Part shown: positions 1 to 57,635 of the stretch, one piece after another
Position numbering within the stretch: the stretch's first letter is position 1
Layout of the letters: each line of letters opens with the position of its first letter
Assembly (NCBI GenBank): GCA_008632985.1
Contig: QPGO01000032.1
Location: forward strand, 245,330-309,329
Reading direction: 5' to 3'
Source of the DNA: Psammoneis japonica
Lineage: Eukaryota
Length of the DNA: 64,000 nucleotides
Position numbers and translations under genes: made by a program
Notes under the pieces: generated by a model
Database searches by the model: none
The model's input: the letters and a program-made list of their open reading frames with translations, nothing else
Told to the model about the DNA's origin: nothing

Positions 1-201
1 ATTGTGCAAGACAGCCGTGCCCAGATGCAGAGCACAATTGCTGCACTCAAGCTGTTTGGCCAAAATCATCCATTGGAGATGATTTTCACTGACAAGACAG
101 GAGCAGACAAACTCTTCCTGCTGCAAGAGGCTCTGCTGTTGCAGTGGTGCAAAGCCAGGCACAGCCCAGCTGCTTCAGCCCAGCCAAGCAATGATGAACA
201 T

Positions 202-536
202 TGTTGGAGCAAGTTAGATGAGGGTGTCAGAGAACCTGGAAACAGTTGAAGTCTGTGGATGTTTGTCTCCTGATGTGGCTGCCCGTCTGATGACGATGTG
301 TTCTTTGTCATTGCACTGTCGTCCCCAAAATGAAGCATTCTCACTCTTTGTGGTGAATCATCTGGTCTGTCAACTGTTTTCATTGGTGCTGGGAAGCACC
401 TGTTAAAACCAAATCCTTTTGGTGTGTGAAGTTACGTTGAATGATCTTCCAGGCAAAGAACCACAGCCGCACAAGCAGTGTGTGTGTCAAGAGTGGAGGA
501 AGCTTTGTTTGCCACCATTGACATGTTGGTTCAACA
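202..536 (+). repeat. 5' LTR of copia element 1
   Basis: Starts TGTTGGAGCAAGTTAG, ends TTGGTTCAACA; direct repeat of 6588-6933. Confidence 0.92.
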
Positions 537-1532
537 TTTGCTCCAAAGAGTTGTGAGCGTGTAAGAGACAGCTCACCATACGAAGTCTACATTCTCTCAA
601 AGAAATGAGCAGCCTGCACGATGAGTGGCAGAGGAGCAAGCAATCCGCGCAAGAAAGGCCAAGACCAAAAGTGTGGCCAAGGCAGTGGAAACAAGAACCA
701 CAAGTCTTCTGGATCAAAGCAGAAGACACACAGCAACAGGAGCTTTAACCCTGAAATAAATTCCATCCATCAATGATGAACAGCAACTCTTGCAACCCAA
801 CGTTTGAAGATGTGAACAAGACGAAGATTGTGCATTGCATCCAGAAAGAGCACACACAAAAAGAAAGTGCTTGGCACTGTCACTTGAAGACATGAAGTGT
901 CAAGACTTCTTGGGTGAAGAACCAACCTTGAAGGTGTCCAACGAAGCAAAGGGCTCACCAGAAGCAGAGCAAGAGAACAGACAGTTCGAATGTGAGCACA
1001 AGGCTGAACTTGGAGATCGCCAATGCAAGACAAAACAGCTCAAGGAGAACAAGAACAAGGCACTTGCAATGATTCTCAATGACTGCTGCACGAAATTAAT
1101 GAGGCAGAGAGTGCAAGCAGATCCAACCTGCAAGGCAATCAGGGACAATCCTGTTGAGCTGCAGCGTTCAAGGCCAGCAACATGGGGCCACACATGCTCA
1201 AACTGAGCAAGGAGTTCTTCGAGAACGTCCAATGGCTGCAAGAAGAAGAGTGACACACAAGTCTGAATGTGACAAAGATGAGGAAGTCAAGGCAGAAGAT
1301 GCCAAAACCCAGCAGTGAGTCAGGGGCCGTGATTCCATCTGCCAAAGAAAGCGCCAAGAAGGGCTGCACAAAACAGGAGATGTTGCAAGCAAAAGAGGCA
1401 CCGAGATTCTGTTGTGAAGCCAGCATCCCAAGCATGTGGGATTGCAAACATTTCTTGTGTTCTAATCAGGTGAAGAACTTGACCATTGCACCAGATGATG
1501 CTGATTGAATGGCGGCCATTTGGGGTCCACCA

Positions 1533-1935
1533 GACGTGTTCCAGCTCTAGGTGGGACCTCGTACCACTGAACTGTGACATAATTATTTTTTATCATCCGT
1601 CGCATGTTTCGCACGTACATTTCTACGTGTTCTCTATTATAAAAAATTGTTCCACACTGCCTGTTTTGCGAAGCCAAAGGCTTTCTGTTACTGCATCTGC
1701 ACTTATGTCAATAAAAATGCGCTGGGTATATTCTTTAATGTCTAAAGAATATACCCGGGCATGCTGTAAAGAATGTACTTCAAGTGTGGAGGAGGAGATG
1801 CGTTCGCAAAATTGCCTCTTTTTCTGTTGGCGATCATTCATATATTCATTGCTTAATAATTTTACTACGGAGCTCGCACGTAGAATTCTACGGGCCCAAT
1901 GTCACAAAAAGTCCCACCTAGGACTGGAACCCGTC
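1533..1935. mobile_element. Non-autonomous TIR element (MITE) nested in the copia pol region
   Basis: TIRs GACGTGTTCCAGCTCTAGGTGGGAC / GTCCCACCTAGGACTGGAACCCGTC. 4-bp TSD ACCA (1529-1532, 1936-1939). Removing it restores the in-frame copia peptide IWGPPEDVIKGKT. Interior is AT-rich with normal TpA/CpG. Confidence 0.9.
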
Positions 1936-4900
1936 ACCAGAGGATGTGATTAAAGGAAAGACCAAGGGTGCTCACCATTCCCACGGGTGGAACGATGTTG
2001 TTGCTTTGCCATCTGAACTTTGCAAAAGGCAGAGCAATGGAATGACTCTGGGCATCAACATCATGGAGGTTTGTGGAGTCAAGCTCCTGCACTCCAGCAA
2101 CAAGACTGCCAAGCGCCAAGCAAGTGTGAAGCTGAAGTCCAAGAAGCACATCGATGTCAACGACACACTGGACATGACACTGTGACAACACAACAAGGCA
2201 CTCTTCAAGATGGATTTCATCAAGTGCAATTCCAAGTTCAAGGAAATGTCATCTGAGGTTGCAGATGGCATGAGCATTGAACTCATTGCTGTCAACACAC
2301 AAGACCATGTTCCTGAGGTGGAGCGCAGCATCCAAACCATCAAGGAACAAACTCATGCCATGGTGCACCATGCACCGCACAAGGCAATGCCCAAGCTCAT
2401 GTGAGAGCATGTGGCAATCAAGAGTGCCATGACGTTGAACATGTGCCCTCAAAAGAGGACACTCAGCTCATGTGCAAGCATTTGGCAATCAAGAGTGCCA
2501 TGATGTCAAACATGTGCCCACAAAAGGAGGGCATTTCAGATGTCTGCAGTCCACACACCATTGTGCAACAACAAAATCTCGACTGCACTGAACATTTTGA
2601 ATTTTGCATTTGGAGAGTTTGCACTCTCACATGTTGAGAATCATCCCACCAATGCCATGGAGATGCGCGGGGTTGACAGCATCTGCCTGCACCCACAGTT
2701 TGATGCCGCTGACAAAGGGGGTCACTGCACCACAAATTTGCACATGGGCAAGCTTTTGAATCCCCGTGAGTGCGCTGCAGTTCCACTGACCAACACCCAC
2801 ATTCGGGCAGTCAAAAAGATAGCCTCTCATCAAGGCATCAAAGAATTCAAGTGCACTGGTTGACATGGCGACAATCTTTGTGACATCGATTGGACTGCAG
2901 GAGTGGAAGGCAGCAACAGCAACAACAACAGTGACAGTGAAGATGACTCTGATGACAAACAAAAGAACAAGCTGACAAAATTTTAGCAGGAAATGAGCAC
3001 AGTTGCACTCAACATCAAGAAGATGAAGATGAGGAGAAAGAAGAATCCAATGAAATGGGACATGAAGAACAATCAGAACCTGCTGAGATCAGAGGTTGAA
3101 TGACCAGATCGGGACGAAGCTGCTGCAACACTGTGCCAAAGGACACACAAGAAGAAAATTCTCTTTGCAGGAGTGGCAGCCACAGAACAAGAGGAGCGCA
3201 AGCAAAGGAAACTCAAACACTGCCATCACCCAAGAACAAATGTCAATCCCAATCTAGAGGATGACATGGAATGCAACTGCAAGGTTGGACTCATCACAGC
3301 ATTCTTCATGTGCAAGTGCAATGACAGAGCAAGAGCAGGACAAGAGATCTCACTCGGACAACAGCACCTGCTGCACAAAGGCCCAAAGTTGTTTGGCCAG
3401 AGGGGACATGATGCCTCAGAAAAGAAAACAAAACAACTGCATGATCAAGAGTGTGTTTCCAACCAGTGTCAGTGAAAGACATGACTCCGCAAGAGAGAGC
3501 CAAGGCAATGGTGGCCCAGATGTTCCTGATGGAGAAGCACGATGGATGCACAAAAGGGCAAATGGTGCACAACGGGAAACCATCACAAGAGTGGCTGGAC
3601 AAGGATGAGTCAGCCAGCCCAACAGCATCACTGGAAGGAATCATGATGACTGCAGTGATGGACACGAATGAAGGATGCAACATTGTGAGCACAGATGTTC
3701 CAAATGCATTTGTGCAGACAGAAGTTCCGGAGCCAGAGAAAGGCAAAGACCAGATTGTGATGAAGATTGCAGGTTTGTTGGTGGACATGTTGGCAAACAT
3801 TGATCCCAACCTGCATGAACCGCACGTGGTCCTAGAGAGAGGAAAGAGAGTCCTCTGTGCACAAGTGGCAAGAGCCATCTGCGGCATGTTGGTCGCGGCT
3901 CTGCTGTGACACAAGAAGTTCCGAAAGGACTTGGAGAGGGTCAGGTTTGAGCTCAACCCATGTGACTCTGCTGTGGTGCAAGAAGCTCCAAAAGGACTCA
4001 GAGAGGGCCAGGTTTGAGCTCAACACATGTGACCCATGCGTTGCCAACTGCATTGTCAATGGAAAGCAGCGTGCAGTGTGATTCCATGTGGATGACCTGT
4101 TGTCGAGTCACATGAATCCCAAAGCAAATGACAAGTTTCTCAAGTGGTCAAACAGAGAGTGCGGGAGCCATGGTGAGGTTGTGGCAACAAGAGGAAAGAA
4201 ACATGACTGCCTTGGCATGATCCTGGATTTCACCGACAAAGGAAAGCCAAGGGTGGACATGAGAAAGTGCACAGGATCAACGATTGATGATTTCCTGGAA
4301 AAGATCAAGAGCACAGATTTTGCAATGATGCCTGCAGGGGAGAACCCATTTGAGATGGGCGGCACAAGACCGTCCGTAGAGAAAGCACAAATGTTCCACA
4401 TGTGGGTGGCCAAAGGATTGTTTGCATCCAAGAGAGGCCGGATGGACATGCACCCTGCAACATCAGCGCCATGTGCGCAAATGAGGGAACCCACAGACAA
4501 AGACTGGACAAAGTCAGTCCAAAGTCTCAAGCATTTGAATCGAACAAGGAATGAAGTGTCGACACCAAGCGCCAAGAATCTCCGAGTGATAAAGTGGTGC
4601 TTGGACACATCATTTGCAGTGCATCCAGATTTCAAGAGCCACACCAGAGCAGCAACGACAATGGGCGATGGAGCAATGCAAGCCATGTTGAGAAGACAGA
4701 AGCTCAAAACACAAAGCAGCACAGAAGCTGAGCTGGTCGGAGTTGACGATGCAATGACTGTGATCCCATGGACAAAGCTGTTTGTGGAACACCAAGGACA
4801 TCCTGTTGACAAGAACACACTGTGCCAGGACAACAAGAGCTTGATCTTGTTGGAGACCAATGGTCGTCAAAGTGCCGGCAAATGGTCAAGGGCACTCAAC

Positions 4901-5114
4901 ACAAGACATTTCTTTGTGTGCGATCAAGTCAAGAAGGGCAATCTGACCATTGAATGCTGCCCTGCAGATGCAATGATTGGGGATTTTATGACCAAGCCAT
5001 TGCAAGGCGAGAAGTTGTGCAAATTTAAATGAGCCGTCATGGGGTGCCAGACCCAACAGCAACAGCAGTGGGCTCCTGTTTTGTGACATCAGACAAGAAC
5101 TCTGACGCACATGG

Positions 5115-6575
5115 GTGAAAGAACCCTGCAACCTGGAGAATGACAAATGTGCAATCTTCTCCCAGAACAACACGGTGCAAGCAACACCAAGCACACAAGC
5201 AACCATGGATGGCAGCGAAGCTGGAGGTTTCAATGGAAATGTGGCAGTGGCCACAGCTCACACATTTGATGAACGCACGTGCTGTGAGCATGTCACCTTC
5301 AACGAGTGCAACAAGGTGCCAGGCAGATGGCCCAAGAATTGTTTGCTCAAGATCGCGAAGATGTTCAAGACACATGTCCGATGCAAGGATTTGTTCATTT
5401 GCAGAGAAAAGTTGGTTGTGGACAGCCAGCCCACAGATTGGTGGAATGGAAACAAGATCTTGGCATTTGAGCGGCATGCTGAGCAAGCGCACAGAAGAGT
5501 GCAAGACCTGCAAGGTTTTTTGCACAGAAGGTTGTGTCCTGCCTTTGACCCAAACAGGAGACAAGAACTTGAAAAAGGAAGACTGCCATTGCTGAACCCT
5601 GTTCTGGCAAGAGACACACTGGATTACACACAGCTTGCAGTGGACCTGGAACACAGGCACAGGCACAACTCTGATGACATGAGAGCGGCATGGCAAGAAA
5701 GATGCTGTGCAAGGCTTGAAGCGATGGTGACTGTGTTCGAAATGTGCCAGACATGGACACCACTGATGCAGGAACATGTGTTCTCTGCAACCCCAATGAT
5801 CTCCATCCATGACAAAATGGAGACCATCACAGACAAGATGAGGTGGCTGAGCGTTGTGGTGCACACCCGTGAGTCCCATTGGAAATTCCTGGTGAAGAGG
5901 CCAGAAACTTGCAACAAGGCAAGGCCGTTGTTTGCTCAGGGGCAACGGAACCCTGCAAAATTGGCCTTTGACAGGTTGGACATTGACCACATGGCAAAGG
6001 TGTCATGGCTGCAAGGTGTGCCAACATGTGGCATGGACCAACTCGGGACATGTGGCGGACTAATGTGTCCAGTTCACAGCCATGCTGCCGAGCATCCAGA
6101 TTGTCATGAGCTTGTCAGAGACAAGAACAGAGCCATGTTTGATGCATTGAAACCACCAATGTTCTTCAGAAGGACAATCAAATTTGTGTCCAATGTGCAA
6201 AAGCATCACTGGGTTGCGCACGCGGTGGACTTTCTCACATTGACTCCAAACACCGCGCACCAGTGGATCCGAGATCGAATCAAACAATTGAACAACCAAA
6301 ACAACATGCTGAGTGACGTGCAGCAAGAGTTGGTTAGACAAGATTTTACAATGATGTTCGTCAACTGTGTGAAAGGCATTGCCAATGCATTTGATGACAT
6401 GCAGCACTGCTCATGCGATGAAGAAGACACGCGGCATTTTGCCGAAGTGGCCAACATTGAGAGAGAACCTCATGATGTTCTCTGTGACGCATGTGCAAGG
6501 TGGAATGATTTCCCTCAAGGAGATGTTCCAACCTGTGTTGTGGCCCAAGAAAAATTGAACAAACAATTGGAGTGA
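5115..6575 (+). pseudogene. Extra ORF between pol and the 3' LTR of the copia element, function unknown
   Basis: 486-codon open frame inside the element, with only one Tyr visible. Related sequence lies at the same position in copia element 2 (~55850-56850). Confidence 0.6.
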
Positions 6576-6587
6576 GCGGCAGGAGTG

Positions 6588-6933
6588 TGTCGGAGCAAGT
6601 TAGACGAGGGTGTTGGAGAACCCGGAAACAGCTGAAGTCTGTGCACATTTGTCTCCTGACATGGCCCATCTGATGACAATGTGTTCTTTGTCATTGCACT
6701 GTCATCCCCAAAATGAAGTGTTCTCACTCTTCAGAGTGAGTCATCTGGTGTGTCAACTGTTGTCATCACTGCTGGGAAGCATCTGTTAAAACCAAATCTC
6801 CCAGTGTGCGAAGTTGTGCTGAACAATCTTCCGGGCAAAACCACAGCCGCACAAGCAGCCAGGATGTGCACATCAAGAGCGGAGGAAGCTTTGTGAGATT
6901 CCCTTTTGCCACCATTGACACGTTGGTTCAACA
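6588..6933 (+). repeat. 3' LTR of copia element 1
   Basis: Starts TGTCGGAGCAAGTTAG after the PPT, ends TTGGTTCAACA, followed by the TSD AACGT. Confidence 0.92.
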
Positions 6934-7987
6934 AACGTCACCAGAGAGTGCCGCCAACTCTCTCTGCACACACCTGTCTTTGAGAGCGGTGCCAAGACAC
7001 AGACGCAGCTGTGCTGGTGCTGTGCACTGCAAGACACTGCAGCACAAAGACCAGAGTGCAGGGAAACAGCTGGGCTGGACTGTGAATGACCAACAGCAAA
7101 AAGCTCATGGGGCTGGCACAACTCAGCTTGTGGGCCTCTCCAAAGGCAAATGGTGCCGCCAAGTGCTCGACAACTGGGCTGTGCAGGGGCAAAAGACAAA
7201 ATCCTGCTGCACCGCCAAGAGCTCTTTGGAACCTCAAAAACTTGTTGAGGAAGTGAGGGCAGCACAAGGCGATGGCTGCTCCAGCAGCTGGCTGCGGAGG
7301 CTGAAATCAAGCTCAAAATGTGCTGCCAAGTCAAGTTTTTCTGCAGCCATGATGTCTGCAGAAGCTGAGAGCTGCCGCCACAACACCTGCGCTGGAGAGT
7401 CTGAGCAGCACTCATGCTGTTGGACTCCAAAGCAGACAGCGAGGTTCCTGGCAAGCTGCTTTTCTTCCCCACACTTTCCTTCAACAAGTCATGAGAGTTG
7501 CGGCTTTTACTTTCAACTGCATCGGACGATGTGTTCGTCGACAATCCTGACTCTGACAGCGGACAGTTGGTTGAGGCAAGTTTGATTTGCTGATTGAATC
7601 TATGAATGACCAATGACCGCCCTAACGTCACCTATTTATAGCACCTTCAGTCAGTGTGTACGAGAAGTTCGCTCTCTAGCAATGCTTGCCTTATTTGTAA
7701 AATAGTCCTGAAGTCCATTTCGTCGATCCCGATTTTTCAATGACCGCTGCTGGGCAATATGGTACGACGTACGCCGATTGAGCTTTTTGCGGCTTCATTC
7801 AGTCACTTCTTACCGATGCCTTCTTCCCATCAGCAAATATAATTTCTACTCTCTACTCTAATGTAGAGAGTAGAGAGGCTCGGAGTCGGAACAAAAATAC
7901 TGGCTCGTAGCCTAGGTGGCGAACCGTCGGCAAACTTTGTATAGGGATGAAAATCTACCGTAGATCCAGCCTTGTTTAAAAAGAACG

Positions 7988-15584: not shown

Positions 15585-16590
15585 TAGGCCCTGGCCCAAT
15601 GCGCACTCCCAAACCCCAAAATGCGCACCTTTTTTTGGCACTTTGCGCAGTACGTACAATTCTACGTGTCCCTGGTACTGGACGACGGCAAGACACACGA
15701 CAATCCAATTGACAAAGGAGGCATCAAAAAGCACAGAGTTCAACCGCCCTGCATTCATCGCGAATTTCAAAGAGGAGCTGAAGATGTACAAGGAGAAGAT
15801 TGACAAAATAGAAGATGACCATTGGACTACTCTTGAAGGATCAGATGAGTGTGACACCATGCTTGCATTGAAAAAGCAGGAAGAAGCTGGAGAGGAGCGT
15901 GATCCAAGGAACCTTGAAGGACACATGGACCGACTGGCTTGGAAAGAAGATGATGCAGAGGTTGCAAGGAGGGTTTGGGAATGGTGGCATGTTCACCATG
16001 AGATGCATTTAGCCATGTCTGAAGCTGCACGTCTGGTGGTCCTCATGCAACTTTCCAGTGTTCTTCCGTTGAGCGAGTTTTTTCTCAGCTCAAGTGCACT
16101 GTTGAGACAGCTCCACAGCAAAACACACTGCATGATGCCATTTTGTTGCATCTCTTTTCTCGTTTGCACAGGGACATGATGTCAATCAAGACTGTCAGTG
16201 GCACTGCAAGAGAAGCCCAGAGTCGAGAGAGCTCTTTCTCTCAGCTCGAGTGCACTTGCATGGTGTGCAGCTTGCTTTGTTGTGACGTCGTTTTTTTCTC
16301 CTTGGAACAAGGGGTGTGATTTGGTGGCAACACAGTGTAGCAGTAATGTGATTAATACGATGTAGCAGCAATATGATGTGCTAGTAATGTGATGTAGTGG
16401 CAATGTAAAATGTACGTAATCGAGAAGTGGCGAACGCGTGTTGTCACCGTCTTGACCGGTGATGAAGCACGGTTGCACTGAACCTGGTACTGCACCACGT
16501 ACATTCTACGTAGTGCGCACTCTGCGCAAATTGCGCATTCTGCTCACAGAAAATCCCCAGTTTGCGCACTGCGCATTGGGCCTGAGCCTA
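15585..16590 (+). mobile_element. Internally deleted hAT DNA transposon
   Basis: Imperfect TIRs TAGGCCCTGGCCCAATGCGC / GCGCATTGGGCCTGAGCCTA. Perfect 8-bp TSD GATGTTCT (15577-15584, 16591-16598). hAT C-terminal dimerisation remnant VWEWW...SEAARLVVLMQLSS/SVERVFSQLK. Confidence 0.93.
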
Positions 16591-19850: not shown

Positions 19851-19923
19851 GGGTGCAGGGGTGAACATCTTGAACCCAGGAGCAGCAAATGGAGGACACT
19901 CCCTCCTCCTTTCCCTGCCCACC

Positions 19924-36832: not shown

Positions 36833-37070
36833 AGCGGTCTATCGCCAGAAATTTATTGGCAGTTTTTTTAGCAGCCGCCATCACATCACTACTAACACCT
36901 ACTAAAAAGCCCCGTATGTACATCGTACACAATTTCTGTACCAGAACGGATGAAAGCAGTTAGTCGATTTGGTCGGAAAGATACTGTACGTCATCCGATG
37001 TTCAACTTTGCACGACATCGCAATCGACCATGATGATCCATGTTGGATCGACGAAATAAAACGAGGCACC

Positions 37071-44635: not shown

Positions 44636-44989
44636 TTTGTTGTTTGATGCCAATGCTCTGGGTCTTACTTGTGCAAAGAAAAATGAAACAAAAATAATGA
44701 GAGCTTTGTGGGGCTTCTCCGTTTTGTGAAGCAAGCGACCAGCACGGGTTTCAGGTGACTGACTGGTGTCATCGAATTCAAATCTTTGTACTAAAGACTT
44801 CACGTAGATTTCTACATCAACTAAATTTGAAATCTGAATAAATTTATCAGGTACTTAAAATTAATTAATCGATAGCAAACACGACCCAGTCACAAAACCG
44901 CCACTCTTCTCAAGACTGAAGAACTCAAGGAAGAACGGGAAAAAACGAGCGCAATGGCACTAAGAAGCCTTTCTCTGTCAGCGCTCTCC

Positions 44990-47900
44990 TTCATCAATCC
45001 TTGCCATTTGTCACATGCCTTCCTTGACACAAAGCACTCGCACTCATCTGTGGATTTGTTTTGTCACAGACAGCACCAGGCATCATCACAGATGAGCCAA
45101 TGACTTGCTGCTTTGGCAAGTTGCACTTGGCACAGCAAAGTGCAAATTGTTGCGCACACCAGGAGTCCTGGCATGAAATTGACACAACGAAATTGTTCTA
45201 AACATGAGTGTCAACACATCCTGAAGCCTCAAAAATGATGAGCTGCCCAACTTCAATGAAAACAACCAGTTCGTCGTCTCAAGAACACTCAGATGTTCTC
45301 AAAATTTTCACAGAAAATTGCCGTTGAGAGAAATTGTGGACAAACTGACAAATTGTTTAAAGTGCATTTCAACACACCCTGAAGTGTCAGAAATGGTGAG
45401 CTGCCAAACTCCTGCAAGAAGAAATGTGCCCCATTGTTCTTTTGGGCTTGTTGTGTCACGTGAGTGAACATCAATGTTGCACACACAAGAAGTCCAGGCA
45501 TGAAGCCCCCACCATCAACAGCCATGTTTGTCTCTTTGTGTGGCTGGGTGAACTTGGATTTTGACTCTTCATTTTTGCTTTTCTGTCTGGATTGGTTTGA
45601 CATGTGCAACATTTAAACAAAACTCACTGAGAACAGACACAAACTGTGGCCAGACAATTGACCTGTGTGGGAGATTTTGCAAAGTCAAAATGGTTGAATG
45701 TGGCTGATTTGTGATGCGTGCATGCTCCACAAGCAAAAATTTTGATGTCACATTTGGCTGGTTGCATTTTTTTTCAATGCCTCAAAAATGCAGCAATCAG
45801 GTGTGCACAGCTTGCAGAGCTGAGCATTGGAAGCATTCCTTTGCCTCCAAACTCTGCAAAAGTGGCCATTCTTTTTCCATTGGTGATGTTTGTTTGTCAC
45901 CTTTGCTCAAAAGCTGCAGAACTTACAAGCAAAATTCTGTTTTGCAGCATCTCAAAAACTCCAGCTGTGTGCTGGAACATGTCAGCTGCAGCAGCAAGTG
46001 GCATGCAAAGTCATGACTGTGAGTTTCTTGACGAGGTGTTTGCACTCTTCATCTGCATCATGCAGGGCCTGGCCGTTGGAGTGGCAGGTCATGAGAGTGA
46101 AGGCAGTTGCCACATCATGCTGGTGCATGATGTGCACAATTTTCAAAGACAATGACATGTGTCCATGTGCTTTGCTGGCCTTGCTCTGCTTTTTTGACAG
46201 TGAACGCAGTGCAGAAATTTTCACAGTTTTCCATCTTTGTTGCCACCAAAAAGCACTTGCAGTGTGGGGCAAAAATGTGCCAACAATGTGAGTGGAAACA
46301 GCAACACCCTGGTTCATGGTTCACCCCAGCACCCAGTGCCTTTGTTGGGCACTGACCCATCTCTTCAATCTGCCAAGCAACATGAGCACTCATCATTGCA
46401 CAGCAGCAGCAGAAAGAGAGAGCAGCAGTGGCAGCACGTTTTTGGCTTTGGCGCTTTGGCTCAATCAACTTGTGGCTCCATTGATGGTAAAAAAAAAATG
46501 GATGTTTGGCAGAAAAAAAAAAACAACTCAGTCGCCAGAGTGGCAGCTTGCCAGCAGCATTTTCTAGAAAGCATTGGATTCTGTTGACAAAACGTTTCTT
46601 TGTTGGTCTTGAGAATGGCTGGTCTTCTCCACCACCACTCCCTGTGTTGGGCCTGGCGTCATTGTGCATTCAAAAGATGTTCTTCCCTTTTGCTTTGCAG
46701 GTGCCAACCACTGCCAAAAACACTCAAGAAACACAGTCATGGAGAAAAGTGCCTGCTCTCACCTGCCAACATAAAATCCTGCTCAAAACCAGACAAAACT
46801 TGTGCAGTTCTTTGGATGATGTGTCTGCTGCTGCTCAGCCAAGAATGAGTTTAAAGTTTGTCCAAATGCCAATGGTCACAGTCTCTCTTCATCACATCTT
46901 GCACACCACAGATCAGCCAACACGTGCAGGCAATCTGCCATGTCAGAAAACATTGCTGCATGATTGTTGTCATTGTCAGAATTAACAACAGGAAACACAA
47001 TTGGTTGCCACAAGAACAACTGTTTTTGCTGTCAGCAAGGCTCAAGTGTCCAAGGTTGGCAATCTTGACAGCACTTGTGGGTGGAACCTGTGCATCCAAG
47101 AAGCCAACATGTTTGGGGTGCACTCCAGTCCTGGGTGGGGCATCACAGCACTGGAGCTGTTGCACAGCTCACGCATGCTGTGTCTTTGACTGCACTCTTT
47201 GGCACAAGAACAAGGCCCTTTTTTTGAAAATGCCAAAACTCTGCATGTCTCTTTTGTTTGTGCATGTGCATTGTCTTTTTTGTGATCTGCAAGGGTGAAG
47301 GATCTGCTTGACTTGCAAAACCAATGCAGCTGGTGGTCATTGACTTGTTCATTCATCACAGAGCTGATTTTCTGCAGAGCCCACATGCAGAATTCTGACA
47401 GCATGAAAAAATGAAGCATGCAGCCCCACCTCCTGCAGCTGGAGCACATCTTGACTGAAGCGTGGGGTTGGCACTGCAATGGCTGCTGCAGCCATTGCAA
47501 GTGCTGTGTTGCCCTGAAGAAACATTGGACAAGCACATGAGAAAGGGTTGTCTGGTGGTGGGTGGGGGTCAAGTGCAAAACTGTGTGCTCACAAATGAAG
47601 AGTGTTTCTTTTTTGTCAAAATTGCAGGTGTGGTGCATCATGTGCCATGGCTGGGAGCTTTCTACATTGTTGCCACCCATCAGACACACTGTTGGACAAT
47701 GGAGTTGCTGAGCCACAGCACTTTTGTTTTGCAGCCAGCAGAGTGACATTGGCCGAGCAGTGTGTGTTGGCAAGCAGTGCCAATGCAGCCCAGACTCCCA
47801 GTCAAGAGAGAAACTTGCATTTCTAATCATCATGGCTGCTCAACAAAAAGCCTGCATTGGTGGACAGCATGAGGCTTGGACAGTGTGAGGCTCAACATCT

Positions 47901-50900
47901 TGAAAAGCTCTGTGCTCTGAAGAAGTTCTTGGCTGGCGTGCACTGCCACCAATGGGAAGCACTCAACCTTGGTCCTGATGAGAACCTGTTTGTTGTTGGT
48001 GCAGCATGGACAATCAAGGGAGAGAAATGGCTCTTGTTCCACCAACTGCCTCTTCTTGTGAAAATTGATGCCACATTTCCACAAACAACAAGAAGAGAAC
48101 TTTTGTCACTTTCTTGGCCCTGTCACCCACCAGCAACTTTCATTTTTTAATGTCTTTCTGCCAGACCAAAAACAGGGCTGTTTTGTTGGGTCCTTCTTTG
48201 GGTCACATTTCTCACATTGGTGGATGAAATGTCACTTCAAAGGGTCAAAGTTGTCTTGACAGATGCAATGACTCACAAGAAGAAATTTGGGAGCTGAGGA
48301 GAGCCATCACACTGCCCTTGCAAGAGTTGTGTGTCATCAGGGCCAAGCTGGAGCACGCACCACAAAAAACTGAGCACTGTGACAACCCCCAAATGCCTGC
48401 AGCATTTCAAGCCCACTGTGGTTGGCACATCACCACAGAGAAGGATGGAGCCATCGCTGTCTTGGCAAGAGCTGTGTGTCATTGGGTCCAAACTGTGGCA
48501 CACACAAGCAATTTGTTGGTGCTGTCAAAGCATTGCTGAATTCCCTCATGCATCCCAGCGGTTGCAAGCATGAATTTGAGCTGAAGGCACATTGAAGCCA
48601 TTGCCACTCGCGTTGTTCCTTCACTTGCCCAAGGTTCTGCAAATCTGGGAAGAAAGTGAGGTCACCTTCCAGCACATCTTCTCATCACCTGGGGCCAGAA
48701 CAGGCCCAACAATGCCAGTGTGGCTGGTCTTTCCCAGCTCAGTGAAGTCAATTGCAGCCAGCAAAATGAGGACAAAGATTTTTCCAAAGGCCCATGGTTG
48801 ACATCTTTGGTGATGGTGACAATGGCAGCCCCCAAGACATTGGTCACATGGTTGGCCCAGTTGATCTCAATGACATGATTTGCATTGAGCAGGCCTCCAC
48901 CCCATCTTGTTTTAATTCTGTGTTGAAAATGTCATGTGGCTTGAGTTGTCCCTACAAACAAGAAGAGCATTTCTTGTCAGATGCACAACCCCTGTTTTCT
49001 GCATCCACCATGGCTTGTGACATGGCCCATGGCATCATGACAAAATTCCTTCCAATCCAAGTCAATGTGATTGGGAGAGTGGTGGGGCTTTTCACTCATT
49101 GCCTTGACCCACGCACAGGGATCATGAAATTGTGCAACTGCCAAAGCACTCTTCTTGTCTAGAGGATTGTGTTGAAACCAGTGCTTTTTCCCATGAGCAA
49201 AACTGCTCTTCAGCTGTGGCAATGGCACAAGGATTGAAAAGAAAAAATGTGGCTCCGCATGTCTCCTGTTGCTTGTCCAATCCTCATTGCCAAAAGAAGA
49301 AATCAAATTTGAAATTGTTGCACTTGCAAAAATGTCACCAAAGCATTCTGACAAGAAGTGGTTGGGCACCCATTTGGCAACCAAGTGTCACTCTCCAAGA
49401 AATCAAATGTCTGTCAGATGAGTCTTGGTCTCACTGCTGTGAGCAGCACATGATGAGTCTCATCATTGTTCTGGTTGCTGATGCTCCCAGAGAGTGCATC
49501 ATGAAGAAGCAGGAACATCTGACATGGTGCATGAAGCAGGAACATCTGACATTGTGCTTGGAGGAATGTGCAGCTGTGCACAAGGCAAACCATCATCTCT
49601 TTTGTCCCTTGGTTGCTTTGCACTGATGAAAGCATGACATTCTTGCAGATTGTTTTGTGGCCAATGAAACCTGCATTTTTCAGCCCGCCTTCCATGCTGT
49701 CATGCAAGAGCAACATTGACATGGCTGGTTGGCAAGCATCCTTGACAATCCAAAATCTTTCTCTGTGAAAACAACACTTTGTGTCTGTGCCTTGTTGCAC
49801 TGCATTCATTGACATCGGTTGATTTTTTGTTTGTCAAAATTTTATCTTGTTCATCTCTGTGACATGTTGCTTGTCACAAAGAGAGGGAGAGAGAGAACAG
49901 GGATGACAAGGCAGCAACAGAGATGGCAGCTGAGACAGCGCAGCTGTGAAGGAAACAGCGGCAGCGAAGGAGATGGCCACAACAATGGCGCAGCTGCAAA
50001 GAACACACAGTGGCAGCAGTTTCTGAAAAATGTGCCAGCAAAACAGCAGCAAATGGGGCTGGAGAAGATTCCAGTGAAAAAGCAGAAAGATGTGGACAAA
50101 GCAGCACCACAACAGCAGCAACAGCAACTTGGTGCAATGCTCTGCAAAGATGTGGACAAAGCACCACACAACAGCAGCAACAGCAACTTGGTGCAATGCC
50201 CTGTTTGTGTTGCCACTGCTGCTGTTTCATTTTTTGATCTTGTTGTTGTTGTCATCATTCCCACACACAAGTGGCCACGGCATGCTGCCAAGCTGTTTTT
50301 CTGATGTGCTCATCATGCCAGCATCCATCATCAAGCAATGAAGCAAACATTTTGTCAAGATTTTTGTTGGCACACAAGTGAATTTTGTTGTTAAAAGAGT
50401 GCAGAAAGTGCAAGCTCTGGCATCTGCTGCAAGTTTGCACAGTGAAAAACTGCTCAGAAGAGCTCAAACAATGTCAAAATGCACTCACCTGGACAAGCTG
50501 GGACAGGCCCTGGATTGTGCTGATGATGCGCTGCTTCTTCTTTGCAGATGCCCTGGCATGGACTCTTGCAGCAACTTTGGCCAACACAAAACAATTTGGG
50601 CAATTTTGTCCTTGCTGAAGCACCAACCCTTCTTCCTTTGGGAGCCTTGTCATGCAACACCAGCCCCAGAGCAGCCAGTGCACACACCTGCAGCATGTTT
50701 GTTGATGCGGTGGAGCTTGTGCAGCTCTTTGTGATGAGAGTCCATTCACAAAGCACAACAATTTCCTTTGTTGAGAAGATGGGCACATTTTCCTTTCTTG
50801 AGCAGAGCAACAATGACACAAGCAACTGATGAGAATGCCCCTCTCCCTTCTCCCACTTGGTGTGCAGCAGACACAGATCATGAAATTCTGTGTGCTCCGC

Positions 50901-50990
50901 CAGCAAGAAGTGAAACTGTGGCTGCAGGCACTCTCAATGGTGCTCCTGCAGCAATCTAAATTTGAGTGCAGCATCTCCTGCAGCTCTTCC
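44990..50990. mobile_element. Block of heavily decayed, TpA/CpG-depleted repeat remnants (families not identified)
   Basis: Composition matches the recognised dead TEs; no intact motif recognised. Includes a ~57-60 bp tandem duplication at ~50086-50200. Confidence 0.5.
48843..49610 (-). pseudogene. Hypermutated partial copy of the sulfotransferase-like gene (equivalent to ~43670-44440), intron retained
   Basis: Collinear alignment; translates as KHWFQHNPLDKKSALAVAQFHDPCAWVKAMSEKPHHSPNHIDLDWKEF versus KHWFQYDPPDKKNILVIAQFRDPYAWVEAMRKKPHHSPNHVDLDWKEF. Confidence 0.92.
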
Positions 50991-50997
50991 ACATTGG

Positions 50998-53900
50998 TGT
51001 TAGAACAAGTTGGAAGATGGGAAATTTAAGAAACCCAGATGTGTTGAAGGAAAGACACTGTTGAACCTGTCGTGGAAGATGCAGCAACCCCTTTTGTGCA
51101 GAAGAAGGAACATGCCATCATTGATCTCTTGTTCCATCCATTTTGTTTGTCTCACTCTTTGGAGTGATTCATTTGGTTCATCAAGAATGCATGATTGCAT
51201 CACGTTGGCATCACTGGGTGCCTGTCACACCATGAGTTTGAAGTTTGCATGGACAACTTTGCAGGCAACCCACAGCCACACAAGCAGCCAAGGCAAACAC
51301 AACAAGAGCACAGGAAGCCTTGTGAGATTCCTGTTTGGTGCCTTTGACTTGCTGGTTTGACATTCAATTCAAAGAGTCAAGAGCACAACTGTGTTGGTGC
51401 TTGTCGACACTTTGCTGCCTGCAGTTCACAGATTGCTGAGTGCCTGCAATGTGAGTGGCAGAGGACATGGCAGAGGTGACAGTCAAGACACCAAGGATGT
51501 GGTCGTGAAATGGGTGACAAGAGTCACAGGTCCTCACAAGTGAAGAAGAAGACCACTGCCAAGAAATGCTTTCAGCTTGAGATGAAGTTTCATCCTTCAT
51601 CACTGAACAGCAAGTCTTGGAATGCAACCTTTGAAGATGTCAAGGAAAAGATTGTGAGGTGCATGCAAAAGGAGCACACTCAAGGCACACATCCAGCAAG
51701 GTCCATTGAAGACATGGCTCACAAGGACTTGAGCACCAAAAGGCCAACATTGGGAATGGCATCAATGGTGGCACCAGCAGGGGACAAGTCAGACTGCCAA
51801 GAAAAGTTGCTCTAAAGACTGCAAGAGGAAAAGGAGCTGGAGTTCCAGCACAAAGCAAAGCTTTGCAAGTGCAACAACAAAGTGAGGCAGTTTGAAGAGA
51901 ACAAGACTGCAGCACTTTCCAAGATGTCAGCCAGATGACTGCTGCACCAAGCAAATGAAGCAGGGAGTGTGCAAGCCAATCCCACTTGTTTGACAATCAG
52001 GGATGATCCAGTTGAGCTGTTCAAGCTGATCCAATCACTTGCCTTTGACTCTGAGGGAGGTCAACACCCATTTCACATGCTTGCCAGATCAAGTCAGAAC
52101 CTGCCAGATGTGAAACAACAAGAACATGAGTCACTGAATGACTGCTTGTCAAGGACAAAGTCACATGCAGAAATGAGATGAAGACATCTCACTGGTGGAC
52201 AGCAACAGCTCCAGTGCAGGTGCCACCAGATCTGATTGATCTGCCCACTCAAGCTGAAACAGAGGAGCTGCGTGGCACAAACTGAAGCTGGCAACCAGAG
52301 ACAAGCATGGACTGAGACAACAAAGATGTGGAAATGGATGAGATCATCTTTGACAATGGTTTGACCCTCAGCATGGCAGCCAGCCTGAGACAAGTGCCCA
52401 ATGTGTGATCAGCAAAGGTCAAGAAAGACCTGTCCACAAGTGCAGAAGTGGACACTTTAGATGGCCCTGCGCCCAGTGTTTTTACTCCGTTCTACTCAGC
52501 CATCACTGCAGCTGCTGCTGTGCCTCCTTCTGCTGTCCCCTTCCATTCTTTGTGGGCTCTTCACAGCTGTGTGCTTAAAAAACTGTGCCATGCCCAGATG
52601 GGAGCCATGAAGCTTGGATCACAGAATGTGATGGCAAACACTCCAAGCATGAAGGACGTGAAGAGCAAATGCCACATTGCATGTGACAACCAAGTGGTGG
52701 ACAAGTTCCAGCTGCTGGACAAGAAGACTGCCAAGAAAGCAGTGGTGTTCAAAGACAATGACATTGGACCACACACCTTTGCACCAAGCCAGGAGTTCTT
52801 TGACTGCACAAAAGATCTCCAAGACAGCAAGTCACATGTGAGCATGCTGTCAAAAACAAAGAAGAAGCTCAGAAAGAAGAGCAACAAGAAGCACAGGAGT
52901 GCATCTGGAACTGTCACTCCAATGCTGGAGCAGAGCTCTGCTTGGGCCGGCCATGTTGTGAAGTTGGAATCCCTGACATGGACAGAATGGTGTGCATTTG
53001 GGGACCACCCATTGACGCACCAAAAAGAAAAGCCAAATGTGCCCATCAAGCCCATGAGAGGAACAACGTTGTTGCAACCCCACCTGAGATGTGCAAGAAA
53101 CAGAGAGCAGGTGTGATCCTCTGCATTGACATTGTGGAAATGTGCAGAGTGAAGATCCTGCATGCAATTGACAAGATGACAAAAAGCGCCAATTGAGTGT
53201 GAGACTGCAATCCAAGAAACATGCTGATGTGCTGCACCAACGCAACATGGATTTGTTCAAGATGGACTTCATTGAGTGCAATCCTGAGTTCAAGGACATT
53301 CTGAAAAAAGTTGCCAATGACACAAATCTCAAGCTGCTGTCTGCAAATGCCAGCAACCACATTCCTGAAGTTGGGCAAAGTTGTTGAGACCTGCAAGGAG
53401 CAAAACTCAAGCCACAGTGCACCGTGCACCACATGCTGTGCAAGGCAACACCCAAGCTGACATGCAAGCACACCATGATCAAGAATGCTGTGATGGCAAA
53501 CATGTGCCCACAAAAGGAGGGAATCATTGACATGTGCAGCACAGTCCACACACTGTTGAGCAAAGAAGAAACCTTGATTGTGACAAGCACTTCATGCATG
53601 GATTTGGCACATTTGTCCTGTCCCACGTTGAAAATGACCTGACAAATGTGATGGACATGTGTGGTGTTGACAGCACTTGCCTGCTGCAACCACGTGTCTT
53701 GACATTTCCAGCAAGGGCAGCCAACACACAATGAACCTGCAAACGGGGAAACTGCTGAGCCTCCACAAGTGCACTGCTGCATCCCTGGCCACACACGCAT
53801 GCAAAGGTGGTCAAGAAGATGGCCTCAGCACAAACACCATCAAAAACTTTAAATTTGCGGGAAAATGTGGAGACAACCTGCACGGCACTGATTGGACTGC

Positions 53901-56850
53901 AGGATTGGACAGCAAAGAAAACAAAAATGAAAACAAAGAAAAACAATGGCAGCAGCAAAGACAAAAGCAACAGCAAAGATGAAAGTGAGCCAAATCAGAA
54001 GACAAAGACAATGAAGAAGAAGAGCTTGACCCAGAAGATGAACATGATGAAGTGCCAGAAGACAAAAGGTCCAGTTGCAGTCAACAACATGAGGACCATG
54101 ACAATGAAAAACAAAATGACTGTGAAGAGTCAAATGAAGAGTCAGAAGAAGATCCAGAAATGGACAAATCATCCACTGAAGAAAAGAGTGGAGAACAACA
54201 ACTGGTGGACAAGGCAGATGGACTGCCATGACATGAAGTCATGAGAACACCAAAAAAAGAAGAAAGTTTGGCTTGTGGGAGAGACAGATGCAGACAGAAA
54301 AGGAGTGCTGAAAGCTTGAGTGCTGCCATCATTTGAGAACTGGCATGAGCCCCAATCCAGGACGGAGCAGCATTGAATGTGACACAGATGCAGGAATGGC
54401 ACCAGCACAATTCATGTGTGAGATCAATGGCTGGCTCTGGTCAGGAAAGGGTGGTCCTTTGCCCAACAGTTCCCACTGCACAAAGGCCTGAAAGTGTTTG
54501 GCCAGAGAGGACACAAAGCCACAGAGAAAGAAAGAAATGAGACAGCTGCATGACAGAGTGTGCTTTGCACCAATTTCAGTTGAAGACATCTCTCTGACTG
54601 AGAGGAAAAAGGCCATGATTCCCTTGATGTTCCCAGCAGAGAAGCAAGATGGTCACACACCAAAAGGGCGGGTGGTCTGTGTGATGGAAAACTGACCAGA
54701 GAATGCCTGGACAAGGATGACTCAGCTGGCCTGACTGCATCATTTTGGAAGGAACATTGACAACAGCTGTTGTCAATGCAGTGGAAGACCGTGATGTGAT
54801 GAGCATCAATGTGCCAAATGCGTTCATGCAGACATGGATCCTGGAGCCAAAAAAGGGCAAAAACCAGATTGTGATGAAGATCACAGGAGTGTTGGACAAC
54901 ATGCCAGTGAGCATTGATCCCAACCCATGTGTGCCATGCACAGTTGTGGAAAAGAGAAAGAGAGTCTTTTGCACCCAAGTCATTGCCAAAGCAACACATG
55001 GAATGTTGACCACAGCTTTGCTGTGGCACAAGCAATTCTGCAAAGACCCAGAGAAGATTGGGTTTAATTTCAACCCATGTGATCCAATCATTGCCAGCAG
55101 CTGCTTGCCACAGTGAAGACGTTCCACATGTGGGTGGCCAAAGGACTGTTTTGTCCAAGAAAGGCTGCATGGATGTGCACCTGACCATTGCAGCACTGTG
55201 CATGATGCAGGTCAGAGAACCAACCAACAAGGGCTGGGAGAAGTCAGTCCATTGTCTCAAGGGTTTGTTGAGCCGGGCATGAAATGAAGTCTCCACGTCA
55301 AGTGCAAAGGACCTCCAAACAGCTGAGTGGCACACAGATGCATCATTTGCAGTGCACCCAGATTTCAAGAGCCACACCTGACAGAGGAATTGTGGCTGTG
55401 GGCAATGGAGCAGGTCAGGCCATGTTGAAGCAGCAGAAGCTCAGCACCCAAAGCAGCACAGAAGCTGAACCAGTGGGAGTTGATGACACCATGACTGTGA
55501 CACAGTGCCTGGATGAAGTTGTTCATGGAGCACCAAGAGGCCATCCAATTGATGAGAACATCCTTTGTCAGGACAACAAGAGCACCATGCTGCTGGAAAC
55601 TGATGGGTGCAAGAGTGCAGGAAAAAGATCAAGGACACTCAACATTCAACATTTTTGTGGTTGTCAATCAGATCAAGAGAGGCACCAATCTTTGAGTGCA
55701 GCACTGTCCTGCTGATGAAGTGCTTGGAGACTTTAGAACTGAGCCATTGCAGGGCAAGAAGTTTTGAAAATTCAAACAAGCCATTGTGGGCTGTTGGCAT
55801 CAAGCATGACAGGAGCATTTCCTGTTTGTGATGTCAGATGAGAATTCTGATGCATGTGGGTGAAAGATCCCTGCAACCCAGAAGGTGTGGTGAACTGCAT
55901 GGTTCAACCAATCACAGAGTTGCTTGTTTTGCCACAACCATGATTTTGATGACCATTTGCACCAATTGTGAGCTTGAAGAACCAGGGTGTGTGCTGATGA
56001 GCAGCGTGAAGCACATGACGCATTCATGCAGTCAACAGTGGCCACAACATTGTTGGAATGAGTTTGTGAAGTTGGGTGAACCATCAGAGAGAGAGGGAGA
56101 GAAAGCAACTGATTTCAATGTCAAGACTTCCAGAAGGCAGACTGGAAGAACACAACAAATGGACACAACATTTTTGGCCGAGACTGGTGACAGATCCCCA
56201 CATCTGTTGAGAGGCAGCAATCAGCACACATTTGTTGTCAGTCGTGTTCATGCAACACTGCAAGAAGGAGGTCTGGAACTCTTTCCAAGGACTGCAAGAA
56301 GAACGCAGGGATGAATTTGAACAACAAAGGTGGCACAAGCTGTGGACAGTGAGGCACAAGACAATGGGACATGTGTGCAGGGAGAAACATGGATGGACCA
56401 ACCAAGTGCATCAGCACACATCTGTCTGCCACTGCACTGATGATGATCTCCTTGTTTGACAATGGAGAGGAGATGACAGCCATGGTTGAGGACCATGTGA
56501 GAGCAGCGCACAAGACCAAGGCACATTGACAGCTTGTTGGAAATCAAATCTGGGTCCAATGACTCAAATGTTGCAAGCCAAGATTCTGGTGTGAGGCCAA
56601 CCTAAGAGCACACCACAGCAATGATTGTGGGATTTCTTGGCAACAGGTCATGTCCACCACATGGGCAGAATGTCGACACCAGTCTGCCCCACATGTGGCA
56701 TGATTGCCATGGGACATGTGAACCTCTCATGGGATGCACCACCAACTGGCCCACAGAAATGAAGATGTGACAATTTGGGTTGGTGCAAGACAACAATTCA
56801 GCTGTCTATGATGCTTTGAAGTTGGCACAATTCTTCACAAACACAAAATT
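50998..56850 (+). mobile_element. Second Ty1/copia element related to element 1, more decayed and 3'-truncated
   Basis: 5' LTR 50998-51362 (TGTTAGAACAAGTT...TTTGACA; shares CCACAGCC.CACAAGCAGCCA with the element 1 LTR). gag, IWGPP, integrase, RT (NVPNAFMQT, NPCDP, with an internal deletion at ~55110), RNase H (QSSTEAEPVGVDD, QDNKS) and a 3' extra-ORF remnant. No 3' LTR seen. Confidence 0.88.
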
Positions 56851-57635
56851 GTTGAAACAAGGGGCCTGAGAAAGAATGGGGGCTTGCCACAATCTGCATT
56901 TCTTTGAGCTGGGCTGCACAGAGTTGCCAATGATTGGGTGATGGACCCAATCAGGGCCATGGGTCTGCACAGCAACACTATGTAAAAGAAGACTTGGCAT
57001 GCGTGCATGCAACATTGTAAGTGTCATTGAAAGTGCTGTTGTGTGCCTCATCACATGGCACACCGGCAATGGCCGGGGCACATTGGTTGATTGATTGATC
57101 ACTCTTGTCAATTTTTTGTCACGTTTGTTTTCCCTGTTACATGCCACTTGTCACAAGAGAGAGAGAGAGAGAGAATTTCACAACATTTGTCATTTTGATT
57201 GTCGTGGTGGTGTTTTCTTTGGTGCAACAGCGTTTTGAGCGCCTCGAAATTTTGTGAGGGCGTTTGGCGATGTGGTCGAAAATTTCAAAATTGTGCTGGT
57301 ACATCTGCGACGTACATTTCTACACGGACTCAAGTTTAATTTATATTCAGTCTTTAAGATGGACAATTTAATTAACCTATTAAACATCATATAATATACA
57401 AAATTCAACGGCCGTTGAGCCGTTGAGTACAACCGCTACGTGGCATGTACGACGATGGAAATTTCCGTGTGCACTCAGTGCGCCGTTGCGTAGAAATCAT
57501 ACCAACGCCTACGCAGCATCGTGGGTGAGTCGCAAAAATCGCATTCGCATCTCTCTCCACAACAAGACAACACGATCGTGTTGCAAAAACGCGACAGTGC
57601 ATGTCGAGTCGTCCATTGCAATCACAAAAACTACA

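Follow-up and report, generated by a model that had tools for sequence, protein, structure and literature searches.

Near-complete loss of TpA from blocks of diatom DNA, the probable footprint of a directed A:T>G:C mutator

Background

To our knowledge, the established genome-defence mutators, i.e., fungal repeat-induced point mutation (RIP), the APOBEC deaminases and the decay of 5-methylcytosine (5mC), all drive C:G>T:A changes, and a directed A:T>G:C mutator would be their mirror image. Here, we describe the footprint of what is very probably such a mutator in a stretch of 64,000 bp from the diatom Psammoneis japonica (GenBank assembly GCA_008632985.1, contig QPGO01000032.1, positions 245,330 to 309,329; referred to as the window and numbered from its first base), in which several transposon-rich blocks have lost nearly all of their TpA dinucleotides.

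A literature search, which left most subscription journals outside its coverage, returned one description of this signature and none from a diatom. The description is a 2026 preprint on a single rhizarian alga (Mettrop et al., bioRxiv 10.64898/2026.01.13.699255; April 2026), which reports de novo A:T>G:C mutation at TpA only and makes outdated the statement, in a preliminary description of the window, that no published account was known. According to the main text of the preprint, mutation-accumulation lines of Bigelowiella natans acquired 231 of their 302 nuclear mutations in integrated sequences of a nucleocytoplasmic large DNA virus (NCLDV) and a virophage, and 230 of these 231 were A>G or T>C, all at TpA, arising at ~6e-7 per site per generation or ~1000x the background rate. 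It further describes 124 clusters that are depleted in TpA, enriched in CpA and TpG, and enriched in reverse transcriptase (RT) and DDE domains, and it proposes genome defence with an ADAT2-like deaminase as the candidate. For the centric diatom Cyclotella cryptica, passages of PMC5124317 describe binary, block-wise CpG methylation of repeats.

Results

TpA is almost absent from sharply bounded blocks

Observed/expected (o/e) dinucleotide ratios in sliding windows separate two kinds of DNA. Within the blocks (A, B0, B, C and D; Table 1), 1-kb windows have a TpA o/e of 0.00-0.12, a CpG o/e of 0.05-0.49 and a TG/CA o/e of 1.7-2.1, compared to ~0.4-0.75, ~0.8-1.2 and 1.0-1.3, respectively, for the genes between them. 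Whole blocks have a TpA o/e of 0.02-0.09, typically ~0.04, and hold 88 TpA in 28,523 bp (3.1/kb), against 1463 in the 34,303 bp of unmutated DNA (42.6/kb); the longest stretches free of TpA measure 1274 and 1215 bp. These ratios and counts confirm the near-absence of TpA that the preliminary description had noticed in the same blocks.

The transition at the block edges is completed within 50-100 bp. No partial TpA depletion was found in the 1-kb flanks, where the most sensitive context, RTAY (R, purine; Y, pyrimidine), occurs at 14.5/kb compared to 12.2/kb far away. Edges that are this sharp and do not spread suggest that defined elements or domains are recognised. The right edge of block C coincides exactly with a (GA)n microsatellite at 57147-57175.

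TpA and CpG were converted in place

The direction of change can be read from an intact sulfotransferase-like gene, of which the segment 43677-44304 aligns to a copy in block C (48850-49497) that lies 5 kb away and is at least ~86% alike outside TpA and CpG sites (423/491). In this polarised pair none of the 14 TpA was kept (6 became TG and 5 CA) and only 1 of 34 CpG was (15 CA, 14 TG), while the other dinucleotides were kept at 44-88% (AA 40/57). Outside TpA, A>G affected 15 of 133 sites (11%) and T>C 12 of 148 (8%), a difference to TpA with a Fisher p of 6e-12. A third paralogue, used as outgroup, retains a TA that the mutated copy turned into CA. Three points of the preliminary description are thereby borne out: TpA became TpG or CpA in situ, CpG did likewise, and A>G and T>C are enriched at TpA relative to other contexts.

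Where an ancestral TA or CG is hit independently in two copies, the copies should now disagree at half of such sites, one reading TG and the other CA. These CA/TG swaps account for 114 of the 384 double-difference dinucleotides in nine mutated repeat pairs, the internal repeat pairs of block B among them showing swaps too, but 1 of 40 in three unmutated control pairs (p 5e-5). The long terminal repeats (LTRs) of the first of two copia elements in the window show them at 10 of 17 double differences, and differ at 37 of 169 pyrimidine-purine (YpR) sites and at 7 of 160 others. LTRs are identical when made and these are now CA/TG-discordant, hence the changes arose after LTR copying. The loss rate at TpA would be at least ~100x that of other sites, as a lower bound, because ~5% of TpA survive at an LTR divergence of 4.4% (non-YpR sites). 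Outside YpR sites, mutated copies differ by 4-19%, and indels set them apart as well.

The same change is visible in the decayed copia proteins. In comparison to 78 homologues with a normal tyrosine content, one copia open reading frame (ORF) kept none of seven conserved Tyr, and the two copies together kept 0/25, which turned into 12 His, 11 Cys, 1 Phe and 1 Ile, while Phe (21/30), Lys (23/31) and Asp (27/36) were largely retained. Elsewhere in these proteins the same logic turned Leu into Ser or Pro via TCA/CCA, Ile into Thr via ACA, and Arg into Gln, Trp, His or Cys. The conversion of TAY codons to TGY or CAY, as proposed earlier from five peptide motifs, thus stands: all five motifs were found on the + strand (4202, 4592, 4820/55563, 55072 and 55018), and their Cys and His align to Tyr-containing consensus positions of the homologues. 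Metagenomic relatives of this copia lineage have a TpA o/e of 0.28-0.95 and none is TpA-free, from which it follows that the lineage is not intrinsically so; the relatives are the 80 best of 447 confirmed matches, a sample biased to unmutated copies and uninformative on how frequent the signature is elsewhere. The lowest TpA among these 80 belongs to a locus of 3902 bp (L051; TpA o/e 0.28, CpG 0.66, TG/CA 1.46), which may be a partly mutated copy.

Both strands are hit, with a preference for TAY

TG and CA are nearly equal in every block (580:666, 900:954 and 1405:1461), and no strand-coherent patches were detected in runs tests (z -2.3 to +0.5 in blocks, -1.3 to -2.3 in genes). Equal numbers together with the lack of clustering exclude editing of RNA or of single-stranded cDNA.

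The 88 surviving TpA are distributed very unevenly over their contexts, with 4 in RTAY, 34 in mixed contexts and 50 in YTAR, where unmutated DNA has 452, 766 and 245, respectively (chi-square p 7e-21), such that YTAR survives ~25x as well as RTAY; TTAA is over-represented 6.5-fold among the survivors and ATAT is absent. All 16 contexts are fitted by an additive model in which the 3' neighbour determines how fast A is lost on each strand (kt: T 2.6, C 2.0, G 1.05, A 0.44). Judged from these survivors, the process prefers TAY, or equivalently RTA, in the order TAT >= TAC > TAG > TAA. The preliminary description held that the sequence cannot show whether A or T is hit; that part is correct, but the target is not symmetric.

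The TAY rule also predicts the products in mixed contexts, where RTAR should become RCAR and YTAY should become YTGY. For the blocks as a whole, (RCAR+YTGY)/(RTGR+YCAY) comes to 1.56, with single blocks ranging from 1.17 to 2.67; calculation from per-kb figures predicts ~1.55 under full bias and ~1.02 under none. The value is 1.17 for the unmutated parts of the window, 1.04 for 33 normal relatives (118 kb) and 0.98 for 11 relatives in which CpG alone has decayed (p 2e-8 and 9e-24). The proteins follow suit: Tyr to His, which needs a hit on the opposite strand, has a purine before the codon in 11 of 12 cases, and a pyrimidine there gave Cys four times and His once. Raised GpC (o/e 1.15-1.39 versus 0.94-1.07) and lowered ApT in the blocks are the side effects expected from GTA>GCA, TAC>TGC, ATA>ACA and TAT>TGT. 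ApA is not depleted (o/e 0.95-1.42, versus 1.06-1.21 in unmutated DNA), and for the five larger blocks TpC stands at 0.90-1.09, for block D at 0.60 and for unmutated DNA at 1.11-1.15.

TpA loss and CpG loss are separable

Next to block B, the stretch 16580-17500 kept 45 CpG but only 5 TpA in 921 bp, and its homologue at 19547-19836 has lost its CpGs. Block A has a CpG o/e of 0.28-0.34 at a TpA o/e of 0.04-0.09. Conversely, CpG o/e is below 0.45 with normal TpA in 11 of the 80 best metagenomic relatives, which marks the TpA loss as an additional, lineage-restricted process. These comparisons support two separable processes, as the preliminary description had proposed. Deamination in methylated repeats, by analogy with C. 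cryptica, would account for the CpG part of the footprint.

The mutated sequence is reproduced by reads

A public run, X1, contains 95% of the words sampled from 43001-53000. Contigs built from its exact 31-mers reproduce 8.9 kb across the edge of block C with a total of 5 base differences and 1 one-base insertion, of which 1 base difference and the insertion fall to the contigs (word depth ~60) that cross from unmutated to mutated DNA at 41001-46517 and 4 differences to those over 46492-49930. Word depth is that of multi-copy sequence over 50600-56000 and of single-copy sequence over much of block C. Exact 31-mer contigs at a depth of ~60 are hard to reconcile with a base-calling artefact, and the substitutions noticed earlier are thus present in reads, although X1 may be the assembly's own sample.

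X1 and the window differ by CA/TG swaps at 49378/9, 56318/9 and 56331/2, where the differing contig holds the full word depth (~62-66), and at 51675/6, in the multi-copy part of block C, where it holds 95/170 of the depth. Independent hits on homologous chromosomes or strains would produce such a pattern. To the right of block C, in the unmutated flank, TA/CA alternatives account for 5 of the 10 listed differences between X1 and the window (57719, 57839, 58250, 58594 and 58603). A purine precedes the T in 5/5 (RTA context), with both directions represented and small numbers overall; they could be low-level activity outside the blocks. A second run, X2, which is RNA-like with spliced joints, gave no cover on the blocks, where missing cover is not evidence of silence.

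Contents of the blocks and their surroundings

Copy 1 shows the Ty1/copia order of LTR, integrase, RT, RNase H and LTR, as judged from tblastn order and the LTR pair, and its segment 4082-5032 has a phmmer E of 7.8e-101; for copy 2, the LTR search of the window found no 3' LTR. Mutated DNA extends beyond the LTRs of copy 1 on both sides (1-201 and 6934-7590), which makes the unit that was hit larger than one element. Short tandem duplications occur in the integrase and RT regions of copy 1 (2394-2526 and 3899-4033; units of 71 and 67 bp, 87-89% identity), and their copies already differ by CA/TG swaps.

A frame of 489 aa without stops lies between pol and the 3' LTR of copy 1 (5106-6572, +) and has no counterpart in copy 2. 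It exceeds all 300 composition-matched simulations (maximum 453 aa, mean longest ORF 222 aa) and is either an extra ORF of the element or a chance outcome of stop-codon loss. Word-based searches limited to proteins of near length gave no homologue for this frame, which also lacks a Pfam match, nor for a 265-aa ORF at 47045-47839. Pfam searches of 16 and then 57 ORFs found matches in host genes only and none in B, B0, D or the left half of C, apart from a weak hAT hint in B0 (E 0.13); these ~15 kb have no family identifiable by Pfam or homology.

Within the mutated copia copy 1 sits an insertion resembling a miniature inverted-repeat transposable element (MITE) with normal TpA and CpG, the island around it (1463-1951) holding 31 TA and 19 CG in 489 bp. 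A core of 14-18 nt recurs at 15652-15669 and 57310-57323, which suggests that the insertion belongs to a short multi-copy family, spared or young.

The hypermutated sulfotransferase-like copy in block C is one of three family members within 15 kb, in an Atlas cluster annotated as sulfotransferase-like whose commonest phylum is Bacillariophyta; the three-member family is diatom-specific. The mutated member looks like a DNA-level duplicate rather than a retro-copy, because the alignment spans the stretch between the gene's two reading frames. Among the ordinary host genes between the blocks, the E1 protein has its best named matches in the centric diatoms Thalassiosira pseudonana (71%), Ditylum (67%) and Odontella (71%, part of the protein).

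Table 1. Features of the 64,000-bp window (positions count from its first base)
Feature	Position	Strand	Description	Dinucleotide counts
Block A	1..~7590		split by an island of normal composition at 1463-1951; runs off window start	
Block A, left part	1..1460		flank, 5' LTR and gag side of copia copy 1	TA 9, CG 23, TG 142, CA 166
5' LTR, copia copy 1	202..536	+	aligns to 6588-6933	
MITE-like insertion, unmutated	1533..1935		~403 bp; 25-bp terminal inverted repeats 1533-1557 / 1911-1935 (22/25)	
Copia copy 1 pol	1949..5047	+	integrase ~1949-2908, RT/RNase H ~3259-5047; degenerate, Tyr-free; tblastn with full-length homologues	
Block A, right part	1952..7590		reaches ~650 bp beyond the 3' LTR	TA 14, CG 113 in 1952-7500
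3' LTR, copia copy 1	6588..6933	+	self-alignment to 5' LTR	
Tandem repeat	8439-9116		two copies of ~338 bp, 94% identity; in unmutated DNA	
Block B0	15830..16340		small, hypermutated	TA 2, CG 10 in 511 bp
TpA-depleted, CpG-retaining stretch	16580..17500			TA 5, CG 45 in 921 bp
Block B	17500..24850		internal old repeats and an unidentified element	TA 23, CG 71 in 7351 bp
TLC-domain protein gene	36113-36838	-	ordinary host gene between blocks	
Ubiquitin-activating enzyme E1 gene	38300-42061	+	intronless host gene between blocks	
Sulfotransferase-like gene, intact	43379-44854	-	polarity reference segment 43677..44304, with normal TA and CG	
Block C	44960..57140		largest block; spanned by contigs of run X1	TA 35, CG 77, TG 1405, CA 1461 in 12,181 bp
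Sulfotransferase-like pseudogene	48850..49497	-	hypermutated, in block C; aligns to 43677-44304	
Copia copy 2, whole	~51020-55880	+	5' LTR ~51020-51370; 65-72% identity to copy 1	
Copia copy 2 pol	52963..55800	+	degenerate; tblastn, self-blast	
Sulfotransferase-like paralogue, intact	~58211-58921	+	covered by spliced contigs of run X2	
Block D	63330..64000		runs off window end	TA 1, CG 18 in 671 bp

Repetition alone does not appear to mark the targets

The targets comprise two copia elements, one host-gene pseudogene and the ~15 kb of blocks without an identifiable family. The preliminary description had called the process repeat-targeted, which the window does not show: the paralogue at 43677-44304 was spared, the two copies of the tandem repeat at 8439-9116 are unmutated, the MITE-like insertion, which is young or else was not recognised, kept its TpA inside a mutated element, and much of block C has single-copy depth. 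From these sequences the targeting looks domain- or element-specific and not homology-induced as in RIP, and we infer that chromatin state or small RNA, rather than repeat pairing, would be the guide.

Tyrosine-poor homologues in other assemblies

When the 150 best homologues of this copia RT/RNase H were screened for Tyr, 8 had <0.8%; of these, 7 are raised in Cys and His and carry these residues at conserved Tyr positions, hinting that the footprint may occur in other organisms. The tyrosine-poor homologues P0141, P0162, P0167, P0217, P0232, P0252 and P0127 are singletons from ENA, JGI and Logan metagenome contigs.

Discussion

Taken together, a real and directed mutator very probably acted on TpA in these blocks after insertion. 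The blocks would be silenced, transposon-rich diatom DNA, holding two Ty1/copia elements in decay and one pseudogene of a host gene besides unidentified repeats, and two separate mutators would have struck them once the sequences were in place. The first would convert TpA to TpG or CpA almost to completion, site by site and on both strands equally, with a preference for a 3' pyrimidine (TAY/RTA), and would halt within ~100 bp at the block edges. As it makes no new TAA or TAG and even takes away those already present, inactivation would proceed by missense (Tyr to Cys or His, Leu to Ser or Pro, Ile to Thr). The second would be ordinary deamination of methylated CpG.

Several points weigh against this reading or narrow it. 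X1 is not fully independent, as it may derive from the sample of the assembly and its platform is not on record, and blocks B, B0 and D and the left half of C gave no match to Pfam or to any homologue. Support for the TAY product rule is thin at the level of single sites: of four mixed-context sites in the polarised pair, two follow it, the CA/TG discordance differs only modestly by flank class (0.25 versus 0.18-0.19), and the ancestral composition behind the product test is a proxy. The residual TpAs of the polarised pair derive from TG or AA (3/3), which, together with the unmutated MITE-like insertion, could mean that activity has ceased at these loci. Nor does the sequence by itself separate an A target from a T target.

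On the identity of the first mutator, our leading but tentative candidate, to which we give somewhat less than an even chance, is a TadA/ADAT-type deaminase acting on adenine in DNA. The tRNA substrates of TadA/ADAT have U immediately 5' of the edited A, bacterial tRNA-Arg has C on its 3' side, and the product is read as G, while ADAR prefers a G 3' of the edited A. A 3' pyrimidine preference would therefore fit the TadA context U-A-C better than the ADAR one. Alternatively, the directed process may be the same with thymine as the base that is hit, through TET/JBP-type oxidation of T in RTA to 5-hydroxymethyluracil (5hmU), 5-formyl-U or an adduct that mispairs with G and yields T>C. We consider this unlikely, though the motif can equally be read as RTA. 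In dinoflagellates 5hmU occurs mainly at TpA and TpC; it pairs normally with A and needs further oxidation to be mutagenic. We know of no thymine modification in diatoms, and TpC is not lost from the blocks. What speaks for the thymine route, beyond the motif, is that dinoflagellate 5hmU is enriched on transposons as a silencing mark, as described in passages of PMC11572971.

A single dual A/C DNA deaminase, acting at the self-complementary YpR steps and removing both CpG and TpA, is improbable. TpA and CpG are lost together across most of the blocks and both end up as TG/CA, and the preprint cites ADAT2 enzymes reported to act on A and C in DNA (bioRxiv 10.64898/2026.01.13.699255, main text), but the losses come apart at 16580-17500, in block A and in the 11 CpG-decayed relatives, 230 of the 231 hypermutations in B. 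natans fall at TpA and the preprint's main text makes no mention of CpG, and the CpG decay would already be accounted for by methylation of repeat blocks such as that of a centric diatom (PMC5124317, in passages). More improbable still is error-prone repair of the mismatches left by 5mC deamination, in which a low-fidelity polymerase would miscopy A:T at WA motifs (W, A or T). Such repair would explain the co-location with CpG decay and also the TpA-only stretch beside a CpG-decayed block. The signature of polymerase eta is WA>WG, however, while ApA is not depleted in the blocks, including the polarised pair, the specificity for TpA over ApA is far beyond that known for this polymerase, and the other four edges have no TpA-only margin and no leakage into the flanks. 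Two further explanations are extremely unlikely. One holds that the elements were TpA-poor before insertion, by lineage composition or by ADAR- or APOBEC-like editing of RNA or cDNA. Retro-elements can indeed be edited before integration, and both LTRs exist separately on the cDNA, so that LTR discordance alone is no proof of chromosomal mutation. RNA editing would leave TG on the sense strand only, however, whereas TG equals CA without strand-coherent runs and the 3' preference is for Y, unlike the G preferred by ADAR; furthermore, the DNA-level pseudogene duplicate and the flanks of copia copy 1 are also mutated, the 80 best of 447 relatives have normal TpA, and the window and X1 differ by CA/TG swaps. 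The other is an artefact in which modified bases are miscalled (5mC as T, modified T or A as C or G) and the consensus picks a strand at random. Strand-random miscalls at symmetric sites would likewise mix TG and CA, but the X1 contigs reproduce the sequence across an edge, the copies differ by indels and at non-YpR sites and have decayed reading frames, and the seven tyrosine-poor, Cys/His-rich copia homologues come from unrelated metagenome assemblies. Moreover, according to the preprint's main text, Illumina sequencing of mutation-accumulation lines yielded the same signature in B. natans.

The saturated footprint on LTR retrotransposons, if read as the work of a directed TpA mutator, extends the process to a second and ecologically dominant lineage, and a second lineage with retrotransposon targets argues that the process is not peculiar to viral inserts or to a single species. 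It is possible, although we would not yet expect it, that diatoms and chlorarachniophytes share a dedicated DNA-editing defence, in which a natural A-to-G or T-to-C editor of TAY/RTA specificity is guided to silenced elements with a precision of <=100 bp, independently of cytosine methylation, and erases all of its target sites without creating stops. If so, the defence would be widespread in the supergroup of stramenopiles, alveolates and Rhizaria (SAR) and would include the first natural eukaryotic DNA adenine editor against transposons and viruses. The TAY/RTA preference, the equal use of strands and the independence from CpG are concrete biochemical predictions for finding the enzyme, and a natural, context-specific A-to-G editor of DNA would interest genome engineers. 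For annotation, blocks without TAA and TAG stops and without Tyr codons mean that long spurious ORFs and odd-looking proteins rich in Cys and His are predicted from diatoms and metagenomes.

Comparison with known systems

The likeness to fungal RIP lies in kilobase-scale transposon blocks that are saturated with context-specific transitions, have sharp limits and have lost their coding capacity. The direction, however, is opposite: RIP turns CpA into TpA and creates stop codons, whereas here TpA is erased, CpA and TpG are enriched, and no TAA or TAG can arise. RIP also hits both copies of a duplicated pair, while here 43677-44304 was spared and 48850-49497 saturated. The tandem repeat at 8439-9116 and the MITE-like insertion were spared as well. 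When ADAR and APOBEC hyper-edit retro-elements and viruses, selfish nucleic acids are likewise hypermutated by deaminases that favour certain nearest neighbours, but the footprint is single-stranded and clustered (sense-strand A>G, or G>A), while here the strands are equal, the changes unclustered, the 3' preference is for a pyrimidine and DNA of non-retro origin is affected. TadA/ADAT enzymes and the base editors derived from TadA offer a substrate, U-A-C, that resembles T-A-Y, but in nature these enzymes work on tRNA. Natural activity on DNA is reported only in a few cases, which the preprint cites (bioRxiv 10.64898/2026.01.13.699255).

Among methylated genomes, the repeat blocks of C. cryptica resemble those described here in alternating with gene-rich DNA and in the block-restricted CpG>TpG/CpA footprint (PMC5124317, in passages); 5mC deamination differs in explaining the CpG part only and not the loss of TpA. 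Dinoflagellates are an example of a SAR lineage that chemically marks thymine in transposons, but the mark is epigenetic, and a TpA>CpA footprint is not reported in the passages on 5hmU of PMC11572971.

The closest system is that of B. natans, as given in the preprint's main text. Both share A:T>G:C changes that are confined to TpA, give TpG or CpA and are restricted to regions in huge contrast to the remaining DNA, and the long-term footprint, depleted in TpA, enriched in CpA and TpG and accompanied by reverse transcriptase, is alike. The hosts are a chlorarachniophyte (Rhizaria) and a diatom (stramenopile), and the targets are an NCLDV and virophage insert, hit de novo, in the former and LTR retrotransposons with a pseudogene in the latter. 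Depletion is partial there (NCLDV Rho TpA 0.45) and near-complete here (o/e ~0.04), and activity is shown there, while the diatom offers the footprint only. By analogy, the diatom process would be of the same kind as the TpA hypermutation of B. natans, a saturating case in another SAR lineage. That main text does not deal with CpG, flanking bases or diatoms; new here are the TAY/RTA target, the equal use of both strands, edges that are sharp to 100 bp and described at base level, and the separable losses of TpA and CpG.

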